Source: Bacteroidota bacterium
GTDB taxonomy: Bacteria > Bacteroidota > Bacteroidia > 2-12-FULL-35-15
Length of the DNA stretch: 55,161 nucleotides
Assembly: GCA_043742725.1 (NCBI GenBank)
Contig: JAYTXX010000029.1
Coordinates: 1-55,161 of the forward strand
Direction: 5' to 3'
Below the pieces are notes generated by a model. It saw nothing but the letters and a program-made list of their open reading frames with translations. It was not told the DNA's origin and searched no databases. Both the position numbers and the translations under genes were made by a program. Every line of letters starts with the position of its first letter. Position 1 is the first letter of the stretch. Below, piece by piece: positions 21,551 through 42,550 of this stretch.

Positions 21551-22879
21551 ATGGTGAAAGAGAAAAAGATTTTCGTTCTTGATACTTCTGTTATTATTTA
21601 CGACCACATGGCGGCAAAAAGTTTTAAAGAACACGATGTGGTAATTCCAATTACGGTTCTTGAGGAGCTTGATAATTTTAAAAAAGGAAACGACACCAAA
21701 AATTTTGCTGCTCGTGAATTTACAAGATACATTGATAAAATTTCGAAAGGAAATACATTACAAGACTGGATTAATATAAATGGAAAAGGTCATGGAATGA
21801 TTAAAATTGAAATGAATCAACGCTCAAAAACTGATGCTGAAAAAGTTTTTGGAGAACACAAAGCCGACCATCGAATTTTAAACACTGCTCTTTATGTTTC
21901 GGAAAAATATCCAAAACGAAAAGTGGTGATGGTTACTAAAGATATCAATCTTCGCATTAAAGCAAAGTCATTAAGCTTAAATGCCGAAGATTATGAAACT
22001 GGGAAAATAAAAGATGTTAGTGAATTATATACTGGAAGAAGTGAAATGGAAAAAGTTTCTTCTGAAGTAATCAATGAAATTTATGAGAAAGGGTTTTGCA
22101 AACCAAGTGCTGTATTAAAAAAACAAAAACCACTTTCAAATCATTTTTATATTTTACGAAACGGTGCCAAATCGGTGCTGACATCTTATAGCGCAAGTAA
22201 AGACACTATTGAGCGCGTGAAAAAAGTAACAGCATTTGGTATCAATCCACAAAATGCAGAACAAGCTTTTGCATTGGATGCTATTCTTAATCCGGATATT
22301 AAATTGGTTTCGATACAAGGTGTGGCAGGAACAGGAAAAACATTGTTATCGCTTGCAGGAGCATTGGAGCAACGCAGAAATTTTCATCAAATATATTTGG
22401 CTCGTCCGGTGGTTCCGTTAAGCAACAAAGACATTGGTTATTTGCCTGGCGATATAAAATCAAAACTCAATCCTTACATGGAACCGTTGTGGGATAATTT
22501 GAAATACATTAAAAGTCAATTCAATGAAAAAGACCGTGAATTCAAGCAAATAAACGAAATGGTGGAAAATGAAAAGTTAGTTGTTTGTCCTTTGGCATAC
22601 ATTCGTGGACGAAGTTTATCCAATGTGTTTTTTATTGTGGATGAAGCGCAAAATTTAACACCACACGAAGTAAAAACAATTATTTCGAGAGCTGGAGAAA
22701 ATACAAAAATGATTTTTACTGGAGATATTTATCAAATTGATACGCCTTATTTGGATACACAAAGTAATGGTTTGTCGTACTTGATTGATAAACTGAAAAA
22801 TCAAGCATTGTATGCACACATTACACTTGAAAAAGGGGAACGCTCGGAATTAGCAAATCTTGCAAATTCGTTTTTGTAG
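21551..22879 (+). CDS. PIN-domain / PhoH-like ATPase
   Basis: N-terminal PIN (IFVLDTSVIIYD), Walker A GVAGTGKT, Walker B FFIVDEAQN, and C-terminal GDIYQID. Confidence 0.92.
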   Translation: MVKEKKIFVLDTSVIIYDHMAAKSFKEHDVVIPITVLEELDNFKKGNDTKNFAAREFTRYIDKISKGNTLQDWININGKGHGMIKIEMNQRSKTDAEKVFGEHKADHRILNTALYVSEKYPKRKVVMVTKDINLRIKAKSLSLNAEDYETGKIKDVSELYTGRSEMEKVSSEVINEIYEKGFCKPSAVLKKQKPLSNHFYILRNGAKSVLTSYSASKDTIERVKKVTAFGINPQNAEQAFALDAILNPDIKLVSIQGVAGTGKTLLSLAGALEQRRNFHQIYLARPVVPLSNKDIGYLPGDIKSKLNPYMEPLWDNLKYIKSQFNEKDREFKQINEMVENEKLVVCPLAYIRGRSLSNVFFIVDEAQNLTPHEVKTIISRAGENTKMIFTGDIYQIDTPYLDTQSNGLSYLIDKLKNQALYAHITLEKGERSELANLANSFL

Positions 22880-22890
22880 AAATACGGATT

Positions 22891-22970
22891 GGGTTGTTTT
22901 GTTGTTAAAAGCAAACTGCTTATAAATAATTGTCGCTTGTAAGAACACCAACAACAGCGAGTAGCGCCTT
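22891..22970 (+). repeat. Island repeat copy R1
   Basis: GGGTTGTTTTGTTGTTAAAAGCAAACTGCTTATAAATAATTGTCGCTTGTAAGAACACCAACAACAGCGAG aligns by eye with copies R2-R7. Confidence 0.7.
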
Positions 22971-23009
22971 GCAACATAAAATTAAAAAAACATTTGTTAA
23001 AAAAACAAA

Positions 23010-23210
23010 ATGGCGAAGCCGCTTATTGTTTGGATAATACTCTTTGTGCTAACAGTGCTGTCAATACTGCTTTTTAGTAAAAAAGACATTGAAAAAATAA
23101 CAGGCAAAAATGTAAAGGATAAAACAAACTCCTACAGACTTATAATAGTAACAAGTTTTTTTCTTTCAACCGTTTTAGCCTTAATAATAAAATATATTAT
23201 GAAGTGGTAA
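23010..23210 (+). CDS. Small 2-TM membrane protein (66 aa)
   Basis: Two hydrophobic helices (LIVWIILFVLTVLSILLF and LIIVTSFFLSTVLALII). It is bracketed by repeat copies R1 and R2. Coding status is uncertain. Confidence 0.45.
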   Translation: MAKPLIVWIILFVLTVLSILLFSKKDIEKITGKNVKDKTNSYRLIIVTSFFLSTVLALIIKYIMKW

Positions 23211-23212
23211 TT

Positions 23213-23297
23213 GGTTTCCCGCGCCCTAAGCTGACGGAAAAAAGCAAGATGCTTATAAATAAGTGTCGCTGGTGCTCACCAGCGACTGCGGGAAAAA
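23213..23297 (+). repeat. Island repeat copy R2 (full copy preceded by an inverted partial copy)
   Basis: AAGCAAGATGCTTATAAATAAGTGTCGCTGGTGCTCACCAGCGACTGCGGGAAA with a perfect 10-bp dyad GTCGCTGGTG/CACCAGCGAC. The upstream TTTCCCGC (23215-23222) is the reverse complement of GCGGGAAA (23288-23295). Confidence 0.8.
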
Positions 23298-23441
23298 TTA
23301 ATGCGATTTATCAAAGCATTATAGTAATATCCCATTCCTTTTATAAAAAATCAAGAAATGCTCGAACAGTAAACAAAGAAAATCTGTAAAACATGTAATT
23401 CTTTTGTAGAATCGTGTAACGCTGTAAGATTATAAGTGCTG

Positions 23442-23449
23442 TATCTTTG
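23442..23449 (+). promoter_or_regulatory. Candidate -7 promoter box (TAtcTTTG)
   Basis: TAnnTTTG match 38 nt upstream of the ATG at 23488. Confidence 0.4.
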
Positions 23450-23487
23450 TATTGTACAAATTAATTAACAATTTAAATTTATAAAAA

Positions 23488-24021
23488 ATGAAAAAAAATA
23501 AAATTTCAACATGGGTAGCTTTATCCTTTATTGCTTTATGTATAATATCTATAAATGCATGTGAAAAAAGCGGCAAGACTTCTACTTTGCAAGTAAGGCT
23601 AACCGATGGACCGACAAACTTACGAGAAGTTAATGTGGATATACAACAAGTAATGGTTAAATTTGACAATGATACTTCAAATTTAAACAATGGTTGGGTA
23701 TCATTGCCTACTAACGCTAGAGTGTATAATTTACTTAGCCTTCAAAATGGTATTGATACAGTACTTGCTACAGGACCAATACAACAAGATGTAGTAAAAC
23801 AAGTACGGTTTATATTAGGTTCTAATAATACTGTTATGGATACACTTGGTGTAGTCTATCCGCTTTCGATACCAAGTGGTAGCGAAAGTGGCCTCAAAAT
23901 TAAAGTATCTAAAAAACTTAGTCTTACTTTAGAAACCTTAGTAATAGATTTTGATGCTGAATTATCTATTAAGCAGGAAACTGATGGTTACAAACTTCGT
24001 CCTGTTTTAAAAATCAAATAG
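23488..24021 (+). CDS. DUF4382-like lipoprotein
   Basis: Lipoprotein-type signal ending SINAC. The pattern LQVRLTDGP...VNVDIQQV...YNLLSLQNG...SGSESGLKIKV is one I recognise from DUF4382 proteins. Confidence 0.75.
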   Translation: MKKNKISTWVALSFIALCIISINACEKSGKTSTLQVRLTDGPTNLREVNVDIQQVMVKFDNDTSNLNNGWVSLPTNARVYNLLSLQNGIDTVLATGPIQQDVVKQVRFILGSNNTVMDTLGVVYPLSIPSGSESGLKIKVSKKLSLTLETLVIDFDAELSIKQETDGYKLRPVLKIK

Positions 24022-24040
24022 TAAACAATTATTTAAATAA

Positions 24041-24072
24041 AAAAGCAACACTTCTTAAGGTGTTGCTTTTTT
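24041..24072 (+). terminator. Intrinsic terminator after the DUF4382 gene
   Basis: Stem GCAACAC/GTGTTGC (24045-24051 / 24060-24066) followed by TTTTTT. Confidence 0.7.
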
Positions 24073-24075
24073 ATT

Positions 24076-24114
24076 GCAAGATGCTTATGACATTGCACGA
24101 GCGACTGCGGGAAA
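24076..24114 (+). repeat. Island repeat copy R3 (degenerate; left arm of the hairpin missing)
   Basis: GCAAGATGCTTATGACATTGCACGAGCGACTGCGGGAAA keeps both conserved ends of the repeat. Confidence 0.55.
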
Positions 24115-24216
24115 CACCTACTAAAATATACCAACACCAGCATACCACAAAATTGGATAAATAAAATTAATTCCAAACTGGTGTTTGAACAAATAACCAA
24201 ATTGGTAACTTTTTTC

Positions 24217-24224
24217 TATCTTTG
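24217..24224 (+). promoter_or_regulatory. Candidate -7 promoter box (TAtcTTTG)
   Basis: TAnnTTTG match 22 nt upstream of the higB ATG. Confidence 0.4.
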
Positions 24225-24246
24225 CAGAAGTATATAACAATACAAC

Positions 24247-24564
24247 ATGAACATATATAACAGAAGTAGTATTGTAGATTATTATAATAGGCATCCCGAT
24301 TGTAAACAAACATTGGAAAAATGGTATAATGATGTTTTAACGAAGGAATGGAAAAAGCCAACTAATGTTATCGTAGATTTCAACAAAGCAAGAACAATAA
24401 AAAACAACAGAGCTATATTTGAAATTAATGGTAATGATTATAGACTGATAGTAGAATTAAATTATGAAAAGGGGTGGATTTTTATAAAGTTTATCGGCAC
24501 TCACGCTGAATATGATAAGGTAGATGCTGAAACAATAGATTTGTATAGAAAGAAGAAAAAATAA
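24247..24564 (+). CDS. higB: Type II toxin HigB (RelE-fold mRNA interferase)
   Basis: 105 aa. HPDCKQTLEKWYNDV...W.KP..V...F.KARTIKNNRAIFEINGNDYRLIVELNYEKGWIFIKFIGTHAEYDK matches the HigB_toxin family pattern. Confidence 0.9.
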   Translation: MNIYNRSSIVDYYNRHPDCKQTLEKWYNDVLTKEWKKPTNVIVDFNKARTIKNNRAIFEINGNDYRLIVELNYEKGWIFIKFIGTHAEYDKVDAETIDLYRKKKK

Positions 24565-24592
24565 GAGTGGAAAAGTGTAAAAAAAATCGGTA

Positions 24593-24949
24593 ATGGAACT
24601 TAAAATTATTAAAACAAAAAAAGACTATCACGCAGCTTTAGAAAGATTTGAAGAACTATTTTCTGCAAAAAAAGGAACGAAAGATAGCAATGAAGCGGAT
24701 GTTTTGGCTTTATTAATTCAAAACTATGAAGACAAACATTTTGTTATTGATGCTCCCAACCCAATAGAAGCTATAAAATACCGAATGGAGCAACAAGGTT
24801 TGACTAACCAAGATTTGGCTACTATACTGGGTTATAAAAGCAGAGTAAGTGATATTTTTCATAACACAAGAAAGCTGAATTTAAAAATGATTCGTAAGTT
24901 ATATGAAACATTACACATTCCATTAGAAACTTTAATGAAGGAATATTAA
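24593..24949 (+). CDS. higA: HigA-type HTH antitoxin
   Basis: 118 aa, 28 nt downstream of higB. The N-terminal helix IKTKKDYHAALERFEELF and the HTH GLTNQDLATILGYKSRVSDIF are typical of HigB partners. Confidence 0.85.
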   Translation: MELKIIKTKKDYHAALERFEELFSAKKGTKDSNEADVLALLIQNYEDKHFVIDAPNPIEAIKYRMEQQGLTNQDLATILGYKSRVSDIFHNTRKLNLKMIRKLYETLHIPLETLMKEY

Positions 24950-24950
24950 T

Positions 24951-25018
24951 TTTGTTGAACCGTAAAAAACAAGATGCTTATAAATAATTATCGTTGGTAA
25001 GAACACCAGCGACTGGAG
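24951..25018 (+). repeat. Island repeat copy R4
   Basis: TTTTGTTGAACCGTAAAAAACAAGATGCTTATAAATAATTATCGTTGGTAAGAACACCAGCGACTGGAG; stem TCGTTGGT/ACCAGCGA. Confidence 0.7.
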
Positions 25019-25027
25019 TTGAAAACA

Positions 25028-27361
25028 ATGAAAAAACTAAAAAAACCTATTCTTATTGGCATTACCATCATCATCGTTTTTGTGGTATTGGTAATTGCCT
25101 TCGTTTCTCCCATCACCAAATATCTTGTTGAAAAATATGATGTGAAAATTCTTGGTAGAGAAATTACATCGGACTGGATGTATGTAAATCCTTTTACTGG
25201 CTATGTTCATATAGGCAACCTTAAAATATACGAAGAGAAAAGTGATAGTATATTTGTTTCAGCCCAAAGTGTGAGCGCAAATTTCACAACAAGCAAACTG
25301 TTTTCGAAGACGATTGATATAAGTGAAATAACACTTTACCATCCTCGAGGTATGATACTTTACAATGATAAAACGCTAAACTTCCAGGATATTATTGATA
25401 GGTTTTCAAGAGGTAAATCAAAGAAAAAAGTAAAGAAAAAATCAAGTTTTCACTTTAATATTTTTAAAATAAAAATTGTTGATGGAGAATTTCATTATAG
25501 GGAAAACATTACTCCTGTAAATTATTTTGTAAAGCATGTGAATATTGAAAGCAATGGAAAACGATATGATGTGGATACTATGGAGGCTACCGTTTCACTT
25601 GTTTCGGGTATTGGCAAAGGCGATTTGAGTGGGCACATATCAACTAATTTCAATACACTCGATTATCGTTTCAATGCACTTGTTCATCAATTCGATGCAA
25701 AAATTATTACGCAATATGTAAAAGCATTAATTAACTATGGTAGCTTTAAAGCAAGTGTAGGTGGGGATATAAAAGTTACAGGCAATTTTAAAAGTAAAGA
25801 GAATGTGGTGTTGAAAGGATTGATAACTATTAATGATTGTCATTTGAGCAAAAATTCGGTAGAAGATTATTCATCGTTTGAAAAATTTACTTTGTTTATT
25901 AATGAAATAAGCCCTTCAAAACATGTGTATCTTATCGATTCGGCTTCGATAATTCATCCCTATTTTAAGTTTGAATTATACGATAATCATTGGGATAATA
26001 TTCAAGAAATGTTTGGCAGAGAAGGAGCAAATATAAAAGCGGCAAATGCCAATTCGGGAAATTACAATTGGCTTATTGAATTTGCAAAATATATTAAAGT
26101 GCTATCAAAAAACTTTTTCAAAAGCAATTATAAAATCAACCGACTGGCTATATATAACGGACATTTTAGATATAGTGATTATACATTGAGTGAAAAGTTT
26201 TCGGTGGATGTAGGTCCTATTAATGCAATAGCTGATTCAATAAATAAAAATGGGCAATGGGCAAAAGCTATTTTTAAAACAGGAATTAACCCTTCTGGAA
26301 GTGCTTTTGTGGCAGTAAAAATAAATCCAAAAGACAGTTCGGATTTTGATGTTAATTATACTATTAAAAATATTCCTTTAACTCTTTCAAATCCTTATTT
26401 AATAAAATATACTTCCTTTCCTGTTGATAGAGGAACGGTGGAACTCAATGGAAGTTGGACTGTAAGAAATAACATTATAAACAGTAATAATCATTTACTG
26501 GTAATAGACCCAAGAATAAACAACAAAATGAGGAACCACAACAATAGCTGGATTCCGATGAGGTTTTTAATGTTTTTTGCCCGCAAACAAGCCAATGTAA
26601 TTGATTATGAAATTCCAATTACAGGAAACTTGAAAGACCCCAAGTTTCATTTGAAGGATGTTATTTTCGATGCGCTTACCAATGTTTTTGTGAAACCAGC
26701 AACAGCAGTATATAGAACAAATGTAAAAACTACTGAAAAGGAAATAGAGAAATCAATATCATTAAGTTGGGAAATGAATGGTAGTGATTTGGGAAAGGAA
26801 CAGATACGATTTATAAATAAAACAGCTGATTTTTTAAAAGATAATCCAACTGCTACCATTACAATTCATCCAATTATTTTTGAAGAAAAAGAAAAGGAAT
26901 ACATTGCATTGTATGAAGCAAGAAAAAAATATTATATGCTAAATGTAAAAAACAACCATGAGTTTACAGAAGAAGACTCAATAGCAATAAATAAACTATC
27001 AATAAAAGATGCCTTGTTTGTTAAATATCTTAATCAGCAAACAAAAGATTCAATGTTATTTACCGTTCAAGATAAATGCATTCGGTTAATTGGTTCTAAT
27101 ACAATCAATGCAAAATTTACTCAACTTAATAATGAAAGAGAAAAGCAATTTCGTTCTGCTTTTTCTGAAAACGGCATTGATAAACAGTTGAATTTTTCAA
27201 GCCAAGAAAACACAATTCCATATAATGGATTTTCGTTTTACAAATTAGATTACACAGGTGTGTTTCCTGAAGAACTATTGAAAGCTTATGAACGAATGAG
27301 TGAATTTAATTCTGAAGAACCGCGAGAGGAATATAAAAAGGAAAGAGTAAGAAAAGAGTGA
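25028..27361 (+). CDS. DUF748/AsmA-like membrane-anchored protein
   Basis: N-terminal TM helix (ILIGITIIIVFVVLVIAFV) and recurring G-x-F-x-Y motifs (KIVDGEFHYRE, IYNGHFRYSD). The TTG at 25019 abuts the end of repeat R4 (25018), so ATG 25028 is preferred. Confidence 0.65.
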   Translation: MKKLKKPILIGITIIIVFVVLVIAFVSPITKYLVEKYDVKILGREITSDWMYVNPFTGYVHIGNLKIYEEKSDSIFVSAQSVSANFTTSKLFSKTIDISEITLYHPRGMILYNDKTLNFQDIIDRFSRGKSKKKVKKKSSFHFNIFKIKIVDGEFHYRENITPVNYFVKHVNIESNGKRYDVDTMEATVSLVSGIGKGDLSGHISTNFNTLDYRFNALVHQFDAKIITQYVKALINYGSFKASVGGDIKVTGNFKSKENVVLKGLITINDCHLSKNSVEDYSSFEKFTLFINEISPSKHVYLIDSASIIHPYFKFELYDNHWDNIQEMFGREGANIKAANANSGNYNWLIEFAKYIKVLSKNFFKSNYKINRLAIYNGHFRYSDYTLSEKFSVDVGPINAIADSINKNGQWAKAIFKTGINPSGSAFVAVKINPKDSSDFDVNYTIKNIPLTLSNPYLIKYTSFPVDRGTVELNGSWTVRNNIINSNNHLLVIDPRINNKMRNHNNSWIPMRFLMFFARKQANVIDYEIPITGNLKDPKFHLKDVIFDALTNVFVKPATAVYRTNVKTTEKEIEKSISLSWEMNGSDLGKEQIRFINKTADFLKDNPTATITIHPIIFEEKEKEYIALYEARKKYYMLNVKNNHEFTEEDSIAINKLSIKDALFVKYLNQQTKDSMLFTVQDKCIRLIGSNTINAKFTQLNNEREKQFRSAFSENGIDKQLNFSSQENTIPYNGFSFYKLDYTGVFPEELLKAYERMSEFNSEEPREEYKKERVRKE

Positions 27362-27444
27362 TTTGTTTTTTTGTTGTTGAGCTATTGAAAGCAAGATGCT
27401 TATAAATAAGTATCGCTGGTGAGGACAGCAGCGACTGCGGGAAA
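27362..27444 (+). repeat. Island repeat copy R5 (best-preserved full copy)
   Basis: TTTGTTTTTTTGTTGTTGAGCTATTGAAAGCAAGATGCTTATAAATAAGTATCGCTGGTGAGGACAGCAGCGACTGCGGGAAA. Confidence 0.85.
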
Positions 27445-27471
27445 TTTTTGACCACAATAAACATTTTTTTG

Positions 27472-27479
27472 TAACTTTG
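27472..27479 (+). promoter_or_regulatory. Candidate -7 promoter box (TAacTTTG)
   Basis: TAnnTTTG match only 8 nt before the ATG at 27488, which implies a leaderless or near-leaderless transcript. Confidence 0.35.
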
Positions 27480-27487
27480 GTATTACA

Positions 27488-27953
27488 ATGAAACAACGAA
27501 TTTATATCGACACATCCGTTTTCGGAGGACACTTTGACGAAGACGTTTGCAGAACACACTATTCCGTTGTTTGACAGGCTTAAAAACGATGAATTCACTT
27601 TGCTTTTTTCGACAGTTACACAAGATGAATTAACAAATGCACCAGAAAACATCAGAGGACTTGTGAAGAGTATTAAGGTAGAAAACACAGAATTTATAGA
27701 GACAACACCCGAAGCTATTGACCTTGCATCAGAATACATTTCGGAAAAAGTAGTTGGACAAACAAGTTTTGCCGACTGCCTACATATTGCCTTAGCAACA
27801 ATTAACCGTTCTGACTTCTTGATTAGCTGGAATTTTAAACACATTGTAAATGTTCAAAGAATTTGTGGCTATAATTCGATTAACATTAAAAATGGTTACA
27901 AACAATTAGAAATACGTTCACCCAGAGAATTTGAAAAATATGAAGACGATTGA
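27488..27953 (+). pseudogene. PIN-domain (VapC-like) toxin gene interrupted by a +1 frameshift near 27545
   Basis: ATG 27488 reads MKQRIYIDTSVFGGHFDED and stops at 27572-27574. The next frame continues FAEHTIPLFDRLKNDEFTLLFSTVTQDEL...ADCLHIALA...SWNFKH to 27953. Removing one nt near G27545 gives a continuous PIN protein with the expected acidic residues. Confidence 0.7.
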
Positions 27954-28092
27954 AAAAAAATTTGACGCTGTAAATTTTATGCGTCAACAACGAGACGATT
28001 TAAGCAAAAAGTTGTCGAAGATGACGAAAGCTGAAATATTGGAATACTTTAAGAATCGTAAAACGGAGACGACAATAAAGCCCTGTGCATAA
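27940..28092 (+). CDS. 50-aa partner ORF of the PIN gene (possible antitoxin)
   Basis: Hand translation gives MKTIEKKFDAVNFMRQQRDDLSKKLSKMTKAEILEYFKNRKTETTIKPCA. It overlaps the end of the PIN gene by 14 nt and is below the ORF-track cutoff. Confidence 0.5.
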   Translation: MKTIEKKFDAVNFMRQQRDDLSKKLSKMTKAEILEYFKNRKTETTIKPCA

Positions 28093-28107
28093 AAGCACCC
28101 AGAAGTA

Positions 28108-28182
28108 ATTTGTTTGTTTTTGTTGTTGAGCTATTGAAAGCAGGATGCTTGTCGCTGGTGAGGACATCAGCGAATGCGGGTA
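28108..28182 (+). repeat. Island repeat copy R6 (internal deletion of the ATAAATAAGTA segment)
   Basis: ATTTGTTTGTTTTTGTTGTTGAGCTATTGAAAGCAGGATGCTTGTCGCTGGTGAGGACATCAGCGAATGCGGGTA. Confidence 0.8.
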
Positions 28183-29079
28183 TTAATTCAATATAGATAA
28201 CATTCTATCATACATGTTTTTGAAAATATTGAAGTTGTAACTATCTTGTTCACCAAATGATACTATTCCCATAAATGTATCCATGCTTAAATTATTATTA
28301 GATAAAGTATGTATTGGGACTTGAAGTAAAACGATAAAACCTATTGTTCTGTTATCCTTATTAAATCGATCAAATTCTTTTATGTTTTGTTGTATCCATT
28401 CTGTCGTTTGTTGTTGAAGAATATTTTTCCGAGTTAATACATCGTTTACAACAATTGTACTATGTAATGAATTTATTAGTTTTCCAATTGAAAATGCAAT
28501 TATTCCTCTACCCTTTTCATCCGATTCATAACGTGATTTTAGTTGAGAATGCGCTTTTTCAATATTTCTAACAATTTGCTTCACACTAGAAGGTCTTTTA
28601 CATTCAATATAAAAATTTCCATTATTTGTTTTATATTCTAAATCTCCTTCATCATTAAAAATAATATCGTATCCGCCACGAATAAGTCGAGAACCTATTA
28701 TTAATTCAAATCCAATATCTCTTGGTTGATTAGAATTTTTTGATGGATTTTCTTCATCAATATTTATTGGTCCTTCAATATATCTGCCTACTCTTTTTAT
28801 TAATTCATCGTTAACCTGAATTTTCATTAACCCTTGAGTAATTTCTATAAATTCTGTTAAGTCAAAAAAAGAATTTGAATATTCTCTGTACTCATCAGTC
28901 CCCTTTAATTTATTTAACTGTCCAACTTCAATTATTTTTATGTAATTCTCTAATTTTTTCTGATAGGAATTAATCCTATTATATGAATTAATTCCATTTT
29001 GATTTAACCATACTATCCCACTTTTAGAATCATTAAGTTGTTTATATAACCCTTCTAGCTCTTCGTTATTTATTTCCAT
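28183..29079 (-). CDS. Hypothetical protein with a PD-(D/E)xK nuclease-like motif
   Basis: 298 aa. DIGFELIIGSRL...GDLEYKTNNGNFYIECKRP fits the E...D...ExK restriction-endonuclease-fold signature. This is motif-level evidence only. Confidence 0.65.
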   Translation of the reverse strand: MEINNEELEGLYKQLNDSKSGIVWLNQNGINSYNRINSYQKKLENYIKIIEVGQLNKLKGTDEYREYSNSFFDLTEFIEITQGLMKIQVNDELIKRVGRYIEGPINIDEENPSKNSNQPRDIGFELIIGSRLIRGGYDIIFNDEGDLEYKTNNGNFYIECKRPSSVKQIVRNIEKAHSQLKSRYESDEKGRGIIAFSIGKLINSLHSTIVVNDVLTRKNILQQQTTEWIQQNIKEFDRFNKDNRTIGFIVLLQVPIHTLSNNNLSMDTFMGIVSFGEQDSYNFNIFKNMYDRMLSILN

Positions 29080-29130
29080 TTTCGCTTATTTAATTGAATA
29101 AAATATACCACAAAAAGAATATAACTATAA

Positions 29131-29215
29131 TCACCCAGCAGCAGCCTGGTGTCCTCACCCACAACAACTATTTACAAGCGCTTTGCTTGTTATAATTCTA
29201 AAACAAATTTGAATT
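29131..29215 (-). repeat. Island repeat copy R7 (inverted orientation, diverged)
   Basis: The reverse complement reads AAATTTGTTTTAGAATTATAACAAGCAAAGCGCTTGTAAATAGTTGTTGTGGGTGAGGACACCAGGCTGCTGCTGGGTGA and is colinear with R5/R6, including the GTGAGGACA loop. Confidence 0.65.
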
Positions 29216-29225
29216 TTTATTGGTT

Positions 29226-29441
29226 TTATCCTTTACCAATTTTTTCTAGTTCCATTCCGCAAACAGGGCAGTTGCCTGGTTTATCATACGTTTTTCCATC
29301 GCATTTCATAGGGCATTCATAAGCATCTGCTTTTGTTTCTGTGGGAGTTTGTTCTTGTTTTTTTTCTTCGCCTCCACAGCTTGTAATTGTTACTGTTGAG
29401 AATAAAAGTAATGCGCTAAATATAATCGTTGCTTTTTTCAT
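29226..29441 (-). CDS. Small lipoprotein with a heavy-metal-binding zinc-ribbon-like domain
   Basis: Start moved to MKKATIIFSALLLFSTVTITSCGG (lipobox). The C-terminus reads YECPMKCDGKTYDKPGNCPVCGMELEK (CPxxC...CPxCGMxL). Confidence 0.7.
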   Translation of the reverse strand: MKKATIIFSALLLFSTVTITSCGGEEKKQEQTPTETKADAYECPMKCDGKTYDKPGNCPVCGMELEKIGKG

Positions 29442-29559
29442 AGTGTTTTTTTGTTGCACCAATTTACAACTTTTATAAATGTGTTTTATGAATTTTACTT
29501 TCAATTATTTTATTTTACCGTTCAACACAATTTTAATTTGCTTGTTATTTTTTACTTAC

Positions 29560-38750: not shown

Positions 38751-38758
38751 TACATTTG
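38751..38758 (+). promoter_or_regulatory. Candidate -7 promoter box (TAcaTTTG)
   Basis: TAnnTTTG match 39 nt upstream of ATG 38798. It overlaps the TTG start at 38756 given in the ORF track, so that start is unlikely. Confidence 0.4.
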
Positions 38759-38797
38759 TTCTATCAAACCAACAACCCTATACTGTATTTAGTAAAT

Positions 38798-41206
38798 ATG
38801 ATTAATAAACTATTAGCCAAAACGAAAAAAACATATTCGTTTCCAATTCAATATTCAAAAGATTGTGAAACACTATCACACGCTATTTTTAATAGGACCA
38901 ATTGCTCCATCAGCCCAACTACTTTAAAAAGATTATATGGCTTTGCTAAAGTGAAAGACAAACCTTCAAAATTTACTCTTAACACACTTTCAACTTATTG
39001 TGGGTATGCTGATTGGACAGATTTTATTACAAATAGCGTTAATAAAAATGCTTCTAAAAAGAAACCGTTAAGTAAATGGGATGAACTAAAAACAAATTCT
39101 AAAACAACAAGTAATTATACATTAGATGCGTTAAAAAGTAATTCAGGATTGGCTTACAATCAAACTATAAAAAGAAAATTTGTTTATTCTTTTATTGATG
39201 AATTTCTTGAATCAAAAGCCCTGGCCACTTGTTTAATTGCAAATGGAGGGATGGGTAAATCAATTTCAATAGCCCAGGTTGTTGATGACTACTGGCTTTC
39301 AACCTCACCAAAGCATAAAGATGATATTGTTTGGTTTATTTCCGGAACAAATTTAAGAGCCTTGTTCGCCAAACAGCTTGATTTAGATAGTTGGTTTCTT
39401 GAACTCTTTTCGCTTACCAAAGGATTAGACTATAGAAATTATTTTACCAACAACCCTAAAGAAAGAAAAGGTCGAATTCTATTGATTATAGATGCACTCG
39501 ATGAATTGGTAATTAAATCGGATAATCTGGACGATCTGTTCAGAAAATTAATAGAACTTATTGGTTCGAATACAGATACACCTTGGTTCAAAGTAATACT
39601 TACAACAAGAACTTCAACATTTGAACGGTTGATTCACATTATTAAAGATTACCCGGGAATAACTAAACACTTCTACGGAGTTAACTTTGACAATTTAATT
39701 GGATCACCAAGCAACGTACCCCTTTTAAATGATGAAGAAATACTTCAAATTATTGGTATAATTAATTCTACCCCTGAATTTGTTTCATCAACTATTGATT
39801 TCGCATCTTTAAACCCATCACTCCGGCTTCAAATAGCGCATCCATATTATTTGCAATTGTTTATTCAATCTTTTATTGACAAAACAAATAATATACATTC
39901 ACATCACGATATTCTGAATGAATTTATGGCTCACCGTATTTACAAAGGAAAATATGGTTTTGAAAAAACAGAGATATTCAACGCCTTGCTTGTAAATACT
40001 GACTATGGTAGAAAAGCAACTACTACTAAAAAATCTGAAATTGCAGATTTAGTTAATCAGTACAGTAGGGCTTATAAGGAATTGCTATCATTTGGTATTC
40101 TTAAAGAAAGCTACATTCCTAATAAATTTAAGGTATATCAAACATTCGTAAAATTTGGCCACGACACACTATTTGAGTTTTTGATAGCCAAACATTGGAT
40201 AATGGAATTCAAAACCTTTAGCCATGCGCTACTATTAAATGTAACAAAAGCATATTCAGGAAATGAAAAACGAATTGATATTGTTAAACACATTGCGTTA
40301 ATGGGATTAGAAGAAGGTAAGTTTGATGAATTACAACACATTTATGAATTGAAGCTTGAAGAATACGAGTTAAACAGATTATCACATGTTTTAGGAATAC
40401 AGCTTCGTGAAAATAGAAATGCCCAAAAAATACTTATGCCGTTGTGGGCTAAAAACAAATCTGCACAGATCTACTTTTTTGAACGGTTTGTTGATCTCGA
40501 TAATCTAAGCGGTTATTATGGCAAAGCCATTTCTATTTATTTGAAAAATAAAAACAAAAAAGAGGCGCAGATTTTTGGCAGTTGTTTATTGTTTATGAAG
40601 GCTTTTCTCACAAAGGATGAATTGTTATTTAGTACAATGGTTACAAAACTAAGTACGTTTCCATTTGATCTTACCATTCACCCTTTTCCGTTGGGCAGAC
40701 AGATGGCTTGTCAAATCATAGCTTACGAGAAATTTCATCAAAGGAGGTTGGGTGCTAACATTAAAAATCAAATTCTAAGAATCGCTAAATCGGTGGCACA
40801 TAAAAAGGATTTTGTAACGGGTTTCCCTGTCGGTTACCATTTTCATGTGATGGAAGGTTTGTTTTTTGTTGATCAATACGATTTGATAATTATTCTATTT
40901 GAATCAATAGAAGCCGATTTTCCAGAAATAGACGATTACAAACAAACTTGGTTATACAAAATGATGCAGGTTTATTATAGCGTGGCACTCAAAATGGTTG
41001 GCCAGAAAGTAAAAGGAACTAATTTATTTAAAACTGTAAATTTTGAACATGTGTTTAAAGATGTTCCTTGGTATAAAAACTATTTCTTGCTTCAGTATCT
41101 CAAAGCAAAACATATTATAGTTGCTGATGCCAGAGAAAAAACAACGGTAAAAAAACAAATGGGTACGATATCCGAAAAACTTGGATTTTATTTTGGTGAA
41201 AATTAA
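38798..41206 (+). CDS. HTH-like N-terminal domain + NACHT/STAND P-loop NTPase + C-terminal helical repeat region
   Basis: N-terminus reads SISPTTLKRLYGFAK...LNTLSTYCGYADWTDFI. Walker A is LIANGGMGKSISIAQV ([AG]x4GKS). Walker B is RILLIIDALDEL (NACHT-type hhhhDxLDE). It is followed by about 500 aa of helical sequence. Confidence 0.85.
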   Translation: MINKLLAKTKKTYSFPIQYSKDCETLSHAIFNRTNCSISPTTLKRLYGFAKVKDKPSKFTLNTLSTYCGYADWTDFITNSVNKNASKKKPLSKWDELKTNSKTTSNYTLDALKSNSGLAYNQTIKRKFVYSFIDEFLESKALATCLIANGGMGKSISIAQVVDDYWLSTSPKHKDDIVWFISGTNLRALFAKQLDLDSWFLELFSLTKGLDYRNYFTNNPKERKGRILLIIDALDELVIKSDNLDDLFRKLIELIGSNTDTPWFKVILTTRTSTFERLIHIIKDYPGITKHFYGVNFDNLIGSPSNVPLLNDEEILQIIGIINSTPEFVSSTIDFASLNPSLRLQIAHPYYLQLFIQSFIDKTNNIHSHHDILNEFMAHRIYKGKYGFEKTEIFNALLVNTDYGRKATTTKKSEIADLVNQYSRAYKELLSFGILKESYIPNKFKVYQTFVKFGHDTLFEFLIAKHWIMEFKTFSHALLLNVTKAYSGNEKRIDIVKHIALMGLEEGKFDELQHIYELKLEEYELNRLSHVLGIQLRENRNAQKILMPLWAKNKSAQIYFFERFVDLDNLSGYYGKAISIYLKNKNKKEAQIFGSCLLFMKAFLTKDELLFSTMVTKLSTFPFDLTIHPFPLGRQMACQIIAYEKFHQRRLGANIKNQILRIAKSVAHKKDFVTGFPVGYHFHVMEGLFFVDQYDLIIILFESIEADFPEIDDYKQTWLYKMMQVYYSVALKMVGQKVKGTNLFKTVNFEHVFKDVPWYKNYFLLQYLKAKHIIVADAREKTTVKKQMGTISEKLGFYFGEN

Positions 41207-41528
41207 ATAATCGCAGTTAAAAGCGGAAGTCAATAGTATAAAATAAATATTTGGTTGAAGCTATAAACATGTTATACAAACTATTATTTGTTAATTAATC
41301 TGTAGCTTATTAATATTCAAATCTGTTACGTATTGTATGTCCCAGCATCAATAACACAACCTTATATTACTTCAGTGCGGCTGACGTGCACAAAAAGAGC
41401 AGGGCAGAGCGTCAATAAAAAGTACTGTGTACTTTTTTAGCGATGAGCCAGTCTGCTGGGCAAGCGTTTTACAGCCCTGAAGCGTAAGCATTTTGCGGGA
41501 AAAGCAAAAGCTTGGCGTTGGTTTTTGT

Positions 41529-41578
41529 GCTTGAGCCTCCACACATACTGGCTCAAATGTGTACCACACATTTGCCCT
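41529..41578. repeat. Type-II structured module, copy 1
   Basis: GCTTGAGCCTCCACACATACTGGCTCAAATGTGTACCACACATTTGCCCT, identical at 49 of 50 positions to 42137-42186. Contains the stem TTGAGCC/GGCTCAA and an ATGTGT segment that can pair with either of two ACACAT segments. Confidence 0.75.
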
Positions 41579-41696
41579 ATTTCTTTTGTTTCAAGACAGG
41601 ACAAACATCCTGTGGATGTTTGAGCCAGACCGAGCGAATGCTTTCTATTATTCCAATAGAAAAGAAAAACATCAAAACACATCAAAGAATAAAATT

Positions 41697-41810
41697 AAAT
41701 TGAATAACAGGCGCGTAAGCCTGAAAAGGTTGCGGGGGCTTGCCAGCTTGTGCGTTAGCCGATGACCTTTTCTTGAATTTTTGTTTCTTTTGTTTCAAGA
41801 CAAAAGAAAA
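41697..41810. repeat. Type-I structured module, copy A
   Basis: AAATTGAATAAC, hairpin CAGGC-GCGTAA-GCCTG, helix GAAAAGGT...ACCTTTTC enclosing a GC-rich insert, then CTTGAA...TTCAAG / TTCTTTTGT...ACAAAAGAA. Confidence 0.75.
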
Positions 41811-41904
41811 CAGATCGTTTTCGTGTTCGATTTTTTCTAACTTTTTTATCAAAAAAGTAAGTTTCAAAAGAAAAATATTATTTCCAACAACAAAGAACAA
41901 AACT

Positions 41905-42017
41905 AAATTGAATAACAGGCGCGTAAGCCTGAAAGCATACGGAGCAGCGTCCGCCTGTGTGTTGACCGATTATGCTTTCTTGAATTTTTGATTCTTTTGT
42001 TTCAAGACAAAAGAAAA
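41905..42017. repeat. Type-I structured module, copy B (diverged, with compensated helix)
   Basis: Same hairpin CAGGC-GCGTAA-GCCTG. The second helix is replaced by GAAAGCATA...TATGCTTTC. The terminal CTTGAATTTTTGATTCTTTTGTTTCAAGACAAAAGAAAA is the same as in copy A. Confidence 0.7.
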
Positions 42018-42045
42018 AAGAATTACTATTACAAACCACAAATAT

Positions 42046-42186
42046 AAATTGAATAGTGGGCGCATTAGCCCAAAGCGGTAGCCCGTGCTGAACTTGCCGA
42101 AGCAGAGAAACGCTAACCTGTGCCCCGACCAATCATGCTTGAGCCTCCACACATGCTGGCTCAAATGTGTACCACACATTTGCCCT
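42046..42186. repeat. Hybrid module C (type-I head with compensated hairpin, type-II tail = copy 2)
   Basis: AAATTGAATAG, then hairpin TGGGC-GCATTA-GCCCA, then an insert homologous to copy B (CCTGTGCCCCGACCAATCATGCTT), then the type-II core at 42137-42186. Confidence 0.7.
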
Positions 42187-42307
42187 GTTTATTTCTTCAT
42201 CAAGAAAAGGCAAAAACACATTACTTGTTCTCGATACATTTTTCTGAAAAAGAAAAACACTCGAACAGACAAAGCACAAAAACATTTTAATTTAAAAGCA
42301 CAAAACC

Positions 42308-42425
42308 AAATTGAATAACGGGCGCGTAAGCCTGAAAAGGTAGCGGGGGCTTGCCTGCTTGTGCGTTAGCCGATGACCTTTTCTTGAATTTTTGTTTCTT
42401 TTGTTTCAAGACAAAAGAAAAAGAA
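42308..42425. repeat. Type-I structured module, copy D
   Basis: Differs from copy A at 3 positions over the conserved core 42308-42420 (by eye). These are CAGGC to CGGGC (giving a G-T wobble) and a paired T-to-A / A-to-T change in GGTTGC...GCCAGC versus GGTAGC...GCCTGC. Confidence 0.75.
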
Positions 42426-42550
42426 AAACCTTTCATAAAGAAAAAAAGTTATTTGATTTTCTGCTTGAGCCTTCACAACTTGAAACCTGAAATATGAAAC
42501 TTGAAACTCTTCATTCCTAATTAATTTTTCCTTCATCGCTTACCCTACTT

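Follow-up and report, generated by a model that had tools for sequence, protein, structure and literature searches.

A repeat at every seam of the islet

The DNA analyzed here is contig JAYTXX010000029.1 from the metagenome-assembled genome of an uncultured Bacteroidia bacterium (phylum Bacteroidota; assembly GCA_043742725.1); its full length of 55,161 nt (55 kb) is referred to as the window. Between the gene of a PIN-PhoH (PhoH2) ATPase, which ends at 22879, and the gene of a small heavy-metal-binding-domain (HMBD) lipoprotein, whose 3' end lies at 29226, the window carries an islet of ~6.3 kb (22880-29225) with six gene modules. These modules are parted by an ~80-nt repeat, here named R, which is present in six full copies and one partial copy. 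The locus is a repeat-seamed accessory array, and one genome fragment does not show how this array was built. It resembles an array of gene cassettes without being an integron. The two flanking core genes are normally neighbours.

Copies of R were located by direct-repeat search, alignment, a nucleotide profile (nhmmer) and a covariance model (CM), and all results were concordant. The copies are as follows.

22882-22966, + strand: R1; CM 78.3 bits, nhmmer 2.2e-18; directly 3' of phoH, with 6 nt inserted in the second hairpin and a diverged tail
23210-23297, + strand: R2; CM 70.1 bits; fold -20.7 kcal/mol, z -4.8; the stop codon of module 1 comes from its first bases
24073-24114, + strand: R3, partial; found by direct-repeat search (family D4), motif matches and alignment; part of hairpin 1 and the 3' tail
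24943-25023, + strand: R4; CM 81.9 bits; overlaps the higA stop codon
27358-27445, + strand: R5, the best copy; CM 97.4 bits; fold with both hairpins, z -3.1; overlaps the DUF748 stop codon
28103-28184, + strand: R6; CM 71.5 bits; 10-nt internal deletion; lies between convergent genes, its 3' end abutting the orf298 stop codon
29134-29215, - strand: R7; CM 74.1 bits; directly 3' of the HMBD gene and 5' of orf298

Full copies scored 70-97 bits with the CM, and the next best match elsewhere in 341 kb (the window and the relatives' loci) reached at most 20 bits. No further copy was found within the window by profile and CM search. Two core motifs of R had 4 and 5 matches, compared to 0.07 expected by chance. 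R occupies seven of the 29 intergenic gaps of at least 10 nt, all seven consecutive, and the other 22 are empty (P ~1.5e-5 under random placement). One copy is found at each seam, that is, in every inter-module gap and in both gaps beside the flanking genes, and the two intra-operon gaps (higB|higA and PIN|antitoxin) are free of R. The initial annotation, made from the sequence alone, had already placed the repeats at these positions, with one copy per module seam, a degenerate third copy and a best copy whose sequence was quoted. The profile and CM coordinates agree with this description. R3 is indeed partial, retaining GCAAGATGCTTAT and the tail AGCGACTGCGGGAAA (15/16 matches to the tail motif), and the quoted best copy corresponds to 27374-27444 of R5, which has the top CM score. 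Across R4-R5 and across R7 the window shows 100% identity to Logan assemblies from two different samples, SRR22198267 and SRR23617268. Because these two independent assemblies reproduce the structure, the R layout is not a binning or assembly artefact.

R is a lineage-private, asymmetric two-hairpin DNA element at the seams of a mosaic accessory islet. Alignments and folds revealed the order T/G-rich 5' arm, hairpin 1, A/T-rich spacer, hairpin 2 and CTGCGGGAAA tail. The 5' arm starts with R-T-R-A-T-T-K-G, hairpin 1 reads AAGCA-NNN-TGCTT, the spacer ATAAATAAKT and hairpin 2 TCGCTGGTG-NNNN-CACCAGCGA. Folding of the copies, a check proposed earlier, yielded two local hairpins. End-to-end pairing was observed in R2 alone (TAATTGGTTTCCCGC / GCGGGAAAAATTA), where paired ends enclose a branched centre, and is missing from the six other copies. 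The 5' arm of R2 resembles the remnant of an inverted partner copy. Pairwise identity among the copies is 51-80%. The most divergent copy is R7 (59-69% identity to the others), which has a degenerate second hairpin and is complementary to R5 (71% over 62 nt). As a transcription terminator R is a poor fit, the sense strand having no T tract after the second hairpin. An antisense T tract is present in R2 and R5; R6, the sole copy facing a convergent gene, has lost that stretch.

The inter-module spacers consist almost wholly of R. Relative to the upstream stop codon, the start of R ranges from 5 nt inside to 10 nt beyond it at six of the seven seams; R3 instead follows a terminator. The first bases of R (GTAATTGG, GTGATTTG and TTAATTTTG) provide the stop codons of orf66, DUF748 and higA. 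R1 to R6 are all direct (+ strand), a pattern expected if modules were inserted one after another at a single type of site. The inversion of R7 follows from the - strand location of orf298 and HMBD, the two genes between which it lies. Wherever a gap is flanked by co-directional genes (six gaps), the orientation of R equals the direction of transcription; R6, between convergent genes, is uninformative. One rule, namely that a copy points along the transcription of its flanking genes, accounts for every orientation of R.

This rule bears on the idea, put forward in the initial annotation, that the whole block from R1 to R7 is bracketed like a composite element. It would then be a single mobile element that ends in inverted copies of R and moved as a unit. 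R1 and R7 do have opposite orientation, and each lies 3-10 nt from the stop codon of a flanking core gene. However, they are only 65% alike, five further copies are internal, no target-site duplication is visible and no transposase is encoded inside the block. As the strand of the neighbouring genes fully accounts for the orientation of R7, we consider a composite element highly improbable.

Gene modules and flanking genes

The genes of the islet and its flanks are listed below; open reading frame is abbreviated as ORF.

21551-22879, + strand: PIN-PhoH (PhoH2) ATPase, left flanking core gene; Pfam PhoH 1.9e-48 and PIN_4 2.5e-35; 91% identity to many Bacteroidia homologues
23010-23210, + strand: module 1, 66-aa hydrophobic ORF (orf66) with two hydrophobic stretches; from the ORF list, singleton cluster, without a TAnnTTTG box of its own
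23442-24072, + strand: module 2, DUF4382 lipoprotein (gene 23488-24021); Pfam DUF4382 4.4e-25; box TATCTTTG at 23442
24217-24949, + strand: module 3, higB (24247-24564) and higA (24593-24949); Pfam HigB_toxin 2e-27 and HTH_3; box TATCTTTG at 24217
25028-27361, + strand: module 4, DUF748/AsmA-like membrane protein of 777 aa; Pfam DUF748 1.3e-58; 6 nt after R4, without a promoter box of its own
27448-28092, + strand: module 5, PIN toxin gene (frameshifted, 27489-27953) and 50-aa antitoxin gene (27940-28092); promoter TAACTTTG at 27472
28183-29079, - strand: module 6, orf298 (298 aa) with a PD-(D/E)xK-type motif, E125...D146...E159-x-K161
29226-29444, - strand: HMBD lipoprotein, right flanking core gene; Pfam HMBD 2.7e-11

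Pfam searches confirmed the gene calls made initially for PIN-PhoH, DUF4382, HigB, the HTH antitoxin, DUF748/AsmA and HMBD, and the TAnnTTTG boxes claimed for three modules were found at 23442, 24217 and 27472. For orf66 there was no match in Pfam, NCBIfam or PADLOC. Module 2 has a canonical terminator hairpin of its own (24040-24072, by folding). HigB matches PADLOC PD-Lambda-2_A (8e-33), and HigA matches the N-terminal 120 of 402 positions of PD-Lambda-2_B (2e-40). By these profile matches HigB and HigA resemble the front part of the candidate defence system PD-Lambda-2, without the rest of it. The DUF748 protein of module 4 forms a singleton cluster and is also present on a Logan contig. 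The 5' edge of R4, TAATTTTG (24947-24954), forms a TAnnTTTG box by chance, 81 nt before the DUF748 start; R4 could supply the promoter of this otherwise promoter-less gene. No tRNA gene was found in the window.

The PIN gene of module 5 had been described as frameshifted, and a 1-nt insertion was found relative to intact 154-aa homologues (GAAGACGTTTGC vs GAAGAGTTTGC), the antitoxin gene being intact. The frameshift is real, because an independent Logan assembly has the same insertion. For orf298 only three homologues were found among 5.8 billion proteins, with 29-43% identity, and residues E125, D146, E159 and K161 are invariant among them. An AlphaFold2 model (mean confidence score pLDDT 85) had no significant match in the PDB, and its weak matches were mostly PD-(D/E)xK nucleases. 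The PD-(D/E)xK-like label given in the initial annotation is thus plausible, though not established.

The phoH-HMBD site in relatives and the PIN unit elsewhere

In the relative GCA_965187525.1 (loci L004/L005) phoH and HMBD are convergent neighbours, 47 nt apart. At another relative's locus (L002) a single gene for a protein sorted by the type IX secretion system (T9SS) lies between them. As the site varies among these genomes, the 6.3 kb can be taken as an insertion, that is, an accessory block; this does not imply that it was gained recently. Comparison of the phoH-to-HMBD junction had been named as a check of the initial annotation, and its outcome is in favour of an accessory block. Local alignments of R to the spacers of these relatives (L004/L005 and L002) were no better than shuffles, and thus gave no sign that R derives from the ancestral phoH-HMBD spacer. 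No copy of R was detected in the relatives' loci by nhmmer or CM. Closer strains were not found: with the exception of PIN, each islet protein forms a singleton cluster at 90% identity, and the Logan contigs, the only others recovered, are 100% identical.

The PIN protein behaves differently from the other islet proteins in this respect, its 90% cluster having 84 members, all of 154 aa. The PIN toxin-antitoxin unit recurs in at least four other contexts with 82-83% DNA identity. It lies beside rplT/rpmI, beside uvrB and, in two more cases, beside T9SS-sorted genes or a 185-aa ORF. Homology to these units spans the window from 27448-27465 to 28092-28095, that is, from 3-20 nt past R5 to the stop codon before R6. 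Profile and CM searches found no R at the other loci that carry the PIN module. By sequence comparison the PIN toxin-antitoxin pair is an independently mobile unit, and its sharp borders coincide with R.

On four metagenomic Bacteroidia contigs (L061, L058, L059 and L063) the PIN toxin-antitoxin unit is an integron cassette flanked by attC sites. This bears out the earlier proposal that the cargo of the islet is cassette-like. The cassette is preceded by AGCTAAC-[stem-loop]-GGAAC-GTTATGC and followed by GCATAAC-[long imperfect hairpin]-GGAAC-GTTAGCG. On L061 the start of the PIN cassette, GTTATGCACAAGGC, is the reverse complement of GCCCTGTGCATAAC at its own 3' end, and the preceding cassette shows the same complementarity of start and end (GTTAGCT / AGCTAAC). 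The first 1579 nt of L061 contain three attC 3' halves (...GGAAC|GTTAGC or GTTATGC), located at 36-55, 721-740 and 1522-1541, and each cassette start is complementary to its own R''. No integrase is encoded on these four short contigs.

In the window, the first 45-65 nt of the cassette's leader and its attC are gone, and R is found in their place. A possible 12-nt remnant of attC (GCATAA-AAGCAC) follows the antitoxin stop codon. With the attC of the PIN module replaced by R, modules of foreign origin have thus been re-seamed with R.

What kind of element R may be

An attC site consists of a 5' R'' (RYYYAAC) and a 3' R' (GTTRRRY), joined by an imperfect palindrome across the whole site. Alignments and folds showed that R has no AAC...GTT termini, and six of the seven copies have no whole-site palindrome. 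At no copy is there complementarity between the first bases behind it and the 5' edge of the next one; in the control, L061, this relation does hold. R is therefore not an attC site, which agrees with the initial view that the repeat is not a canonical attC. A scan for AAC...GTT hairpins as attC candidates missed the known L061 sites and was not used.

The islet nevertheless shares its layout with integron arrays, both sedentary chromosomal integrons and clusters of attC sites lacking an integrase (CALINs). The array is direct, with one structured repeat per module and a lineage-specific repeat sequence. Its modules are small, the cargo comprises toxin-antitoxin pairs and orphans, and the 5' edge of the repeat takes in stop codons. 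R1 to R6 follow the pattern of a single, directly oriented site for each short module, R7 being inverted together with its flanking genes. Unlike integron arrays, R has no R''/R' boxes, and several modules have promoters of their own. No intI, attI or Pc was found beside the array, and no Phage_integrase domain in window ORFs of at least 100 aa; intI is not required for a CALIN. The islet might still be a decayed CALIN, in which R would be an aberrant lineage-specific attC or a specific replacement of attC. The likenesses of layout, cargo and embedded stop codons point in this direction, as do the true attC cassette formed by the PIN unit elsewhere, the possible 12-nt attC remnant behind the antitoxin gene and the paired ends of R2. 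We regard this origin as very unlikely, given the missing termini, the six copies without end-to-end pairing and the complementarity that is seen on L061 but absent here. The inverted R7 and the lack of IntI in the window also speak against it, as do three modules with their own promoter, one of which has its own terminator too.

Sites for Xer-dependent dif modules (pdif) are 28-bp XerC-spacer-XerD sites, which alternate in orientation around each module. R does not qualify as such a site: an 11-6-11 palindrome is lacking, the only core palindrome is CTTAT-AA-ATAAG, and the copies are direct instead of alternating. R was likewise rejected as a miniature inverted-repeat transposable element, since terminal inverted repeats are present only in R2 and no duplicated flank is visible at any copy.

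Repetitive extragenic palindromic (REP) sequences and bacterial interspersed mosaic elements (BIMEs), which are associated with RAYT transposases, are imperfect palindromes of 20-40 nt with a conserved 5' tetranucleotide head. They often form inverted pairs and are dispersed genome-wide. In E. coli, REPs are often close to stop codons. The mobilising enzyme of REP/BIME, REPIN and ERIC repeats, if there is any, acts in trans. Like these families, R is short, structured, non-coding and confined to intergenic DNA, often just after stop codons. Unlike them, it is strictly co-oriented with transcription and, within the 55 kb, clustered: 7/7 copies share a block of 6.3 kb, and the 22 remaining gaps are empty. 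A classical REP can be dismissed, as R is ~80 nt long, has two unlike hairpins with asymmetric arms and no GTAG-type head, and occurs as single units, never as inverted doublets.

A looser relation to these families is a real possibility, although we do not favour it. R would then be a selfish or regulatory intergenic repeat of the REP/BIME/ERIC type, a secondary coloniser of short 3' spacers in an otherwise assembled islet. Its spread could be due to a transposase, Y1 (RAYT-like) or other, whose gene lies elsewhere, or it could be kept as an RNA element of 3' untranslated regions. The position of R within a few nucleotides of stop codons, as in many REPs, fits this explanation, and its co-orientation with transcription in 6/6 informative gaps fits a role at the RNA level. 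The diverged and partly decayed copies, the R2 arm that resembles an inverted partner, and the lack of a recombinase nearby (window ORFs of at least 100 aa) are in its favour as well, and other hairpin repeat families are present in the same window and on another contig, L048. On the other hand, a repeat that has two unlike hairpins in place of a GTAG-headed 20-40-nt palindrome and never forms an inverted doublet would have had to insert seven times independently, filling a run of seven gaps and sparing 22 others (~1.5e-5). The coloniser model also leaves unexplained why nothing except R remains between modules of differing origin, and why the attC and leader of the PIN cassette were lost exactly at R.

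Two further systems were considered for comparison. In Neisseria, intergenic mosaic elements (dRS3/RS) and 'minimal mobile elements' place short repeats at the seams of mosaic, strain-variable blocks between conserved genes, and exchange is thought to use the repeats or the flanks. The islet differs from these in its phylum and repeat anatomy; the sequences are unrelated and inter-strain exchange is not evident for the islet. The Bacteroidales rAID-1 clusters (Ross et al., preprint 10.1101/471110) have at least two co-oriented downstream genes and repetitive intergenic sequences, like the islet. The islet differs from them in that its upstream gene is phoH2, the recombinase that defines rAID-1 is not in the window, and the cargo consists of toxin-antitoxin pairs, orphans and a nuclease-like gene.

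By sequence, the R family appears to be new. The query TGCTTATAAATAANTNTCGYTKGT had no hits in GTDB species genomes (185,579), JGI metagenomes or IMG/VR; the GTDB and JGI scans missed the source contig too, its genome being absent there. A stem-based pattern, AAGCANNNTGCTTN{0,14}TCGYTKGTN{3,14}CAGCGA, gave four GC-rich chance hits in metagenomes and none in IMG/VR. Searching plasmids and phages with R5 by blastn returned nothing, and Rfam had no hit to R at gathering scores and only noise at permissive E-values. When concatenated translations of R were compared with the 5.8-billion-protein collection, in search of spurious ORFs over copies, nothing scored.

We favour the view that the copies of R are the recombination seams of a cassette-like accretion, and assign it a probability of roughly 45%. 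The islet would have been built at the convergent phoH2/HMBD junction by stepwise accretion, with recombination at R linking unrelated modules. Either an enzyme whose gene lies elsewhere would be responsible, or homology between copies of R would suffice. The outcome would be n modules with n+1 co-oriented copies between and beside them. As one R remains from each acquisition, the model accounts for the occupancy of consecutive gaps, for spacers made up of R and for the missing attC, and it also explains the n+1 direct copies. We infer that R itself was the substrate, and with it the kind of recombination. One solid fact supports the cassette reading, namely that a true integron cassette has been re-seamed with R. 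Of the interpretation given in the initial annotation, the accessory block, the seam layout, the non-attC nature of the repeat, the cassette-like cargo and the lack of a recombinase in the window have stood, and the composite bracket has fallen.

Several points weigh against accretion at R. The copies are old and decayed, with 51-80% identity, a truncated R3, a deletion in R6 and a degenerate R7, and better conservation would be expected of a site in active use. In none of the collections searched was R found again, and window ORFs of at least 100 aa had no recombinase, integrase or transposase domain. In the hairpins 89% of the cells pair and no compensatory changes occur, so that covariation neither supports nor refutes the structure. 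The relatives with an empty or one-gene site are distant (PhoH 91% and HMBD 44-49% identical). The reading depends on this one locus, for which neither an enzyme nor population or module-level variation has been shown, and intergenic repeat families, such as the second family in the window and that on L048, may simply be common in this group.

A bolder form of accretion at R is that R is the site of an undescribed, integron-independent gene-cassette system in uncultured Bacteroidia. Promoter-to-stop modules would be placed at R, behind core genes, by a trans-encoded enzyme, and such a system would be able to take over modules that circulate elsewhere as attC cassettes. We consider this unlikely. 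Only for integrons is the stacking of single-gene modules behind one recombination site well understood, and the rAID-1 clusters of Bacteroidales hint at such stacking in other phyla with other sites and enzymes. In the islet a non-attC repeat lies at every seam, and one module, demonstrably an integron cassette at other loci, has lost its attC in the islet. Should R be a recombination site, this would point to a second mechanism of cassette capture and to exchange between cassette pools. If R is a REP-like coloniser, the locus would be an ordinary accessory hot spot with a new repeat family.

Private repeats were also seen away from R. Contig L048, which carries another PIN module, has a hairpin repeat of its own, CCGCAGGATTTGCAATCCTGTGG, in five copies and both orientations between small ORFs (1453-1642 and 2756-2897), together with an 83%-identical 59-nt unit. 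It is a separate example of small modules parted by a private repeat. In the window, an 816-aa protein (38756-41206) weakly matches NACHT/STAND NTPases, with a score under the Pfam cut-off, and PADLOC gave no hit for it. Directly downstream of its gene, a 1.4-kb non-coding stretch before a gene for a Cys/Met-type pyridoxal phosphate (PLP) enzyme contains a second repeat family, unrelated to R (41500-42450). A 59-nt unit occurs there twice at 95% identity. The family consists of three structured units of ~127 nt (41686, 41893 and 42297), 64-94% alike, each ending in a terminator-like hairpin, TTTCTTTTGTTTCAAGACAAAAGAAA; Rfam had no match for it. The inner stem varies compensatorily between the copies (AAAAGG/CCTTTT vs AAAGCATA/TATGCTTT), and these units may be tandem small-RNA genes.

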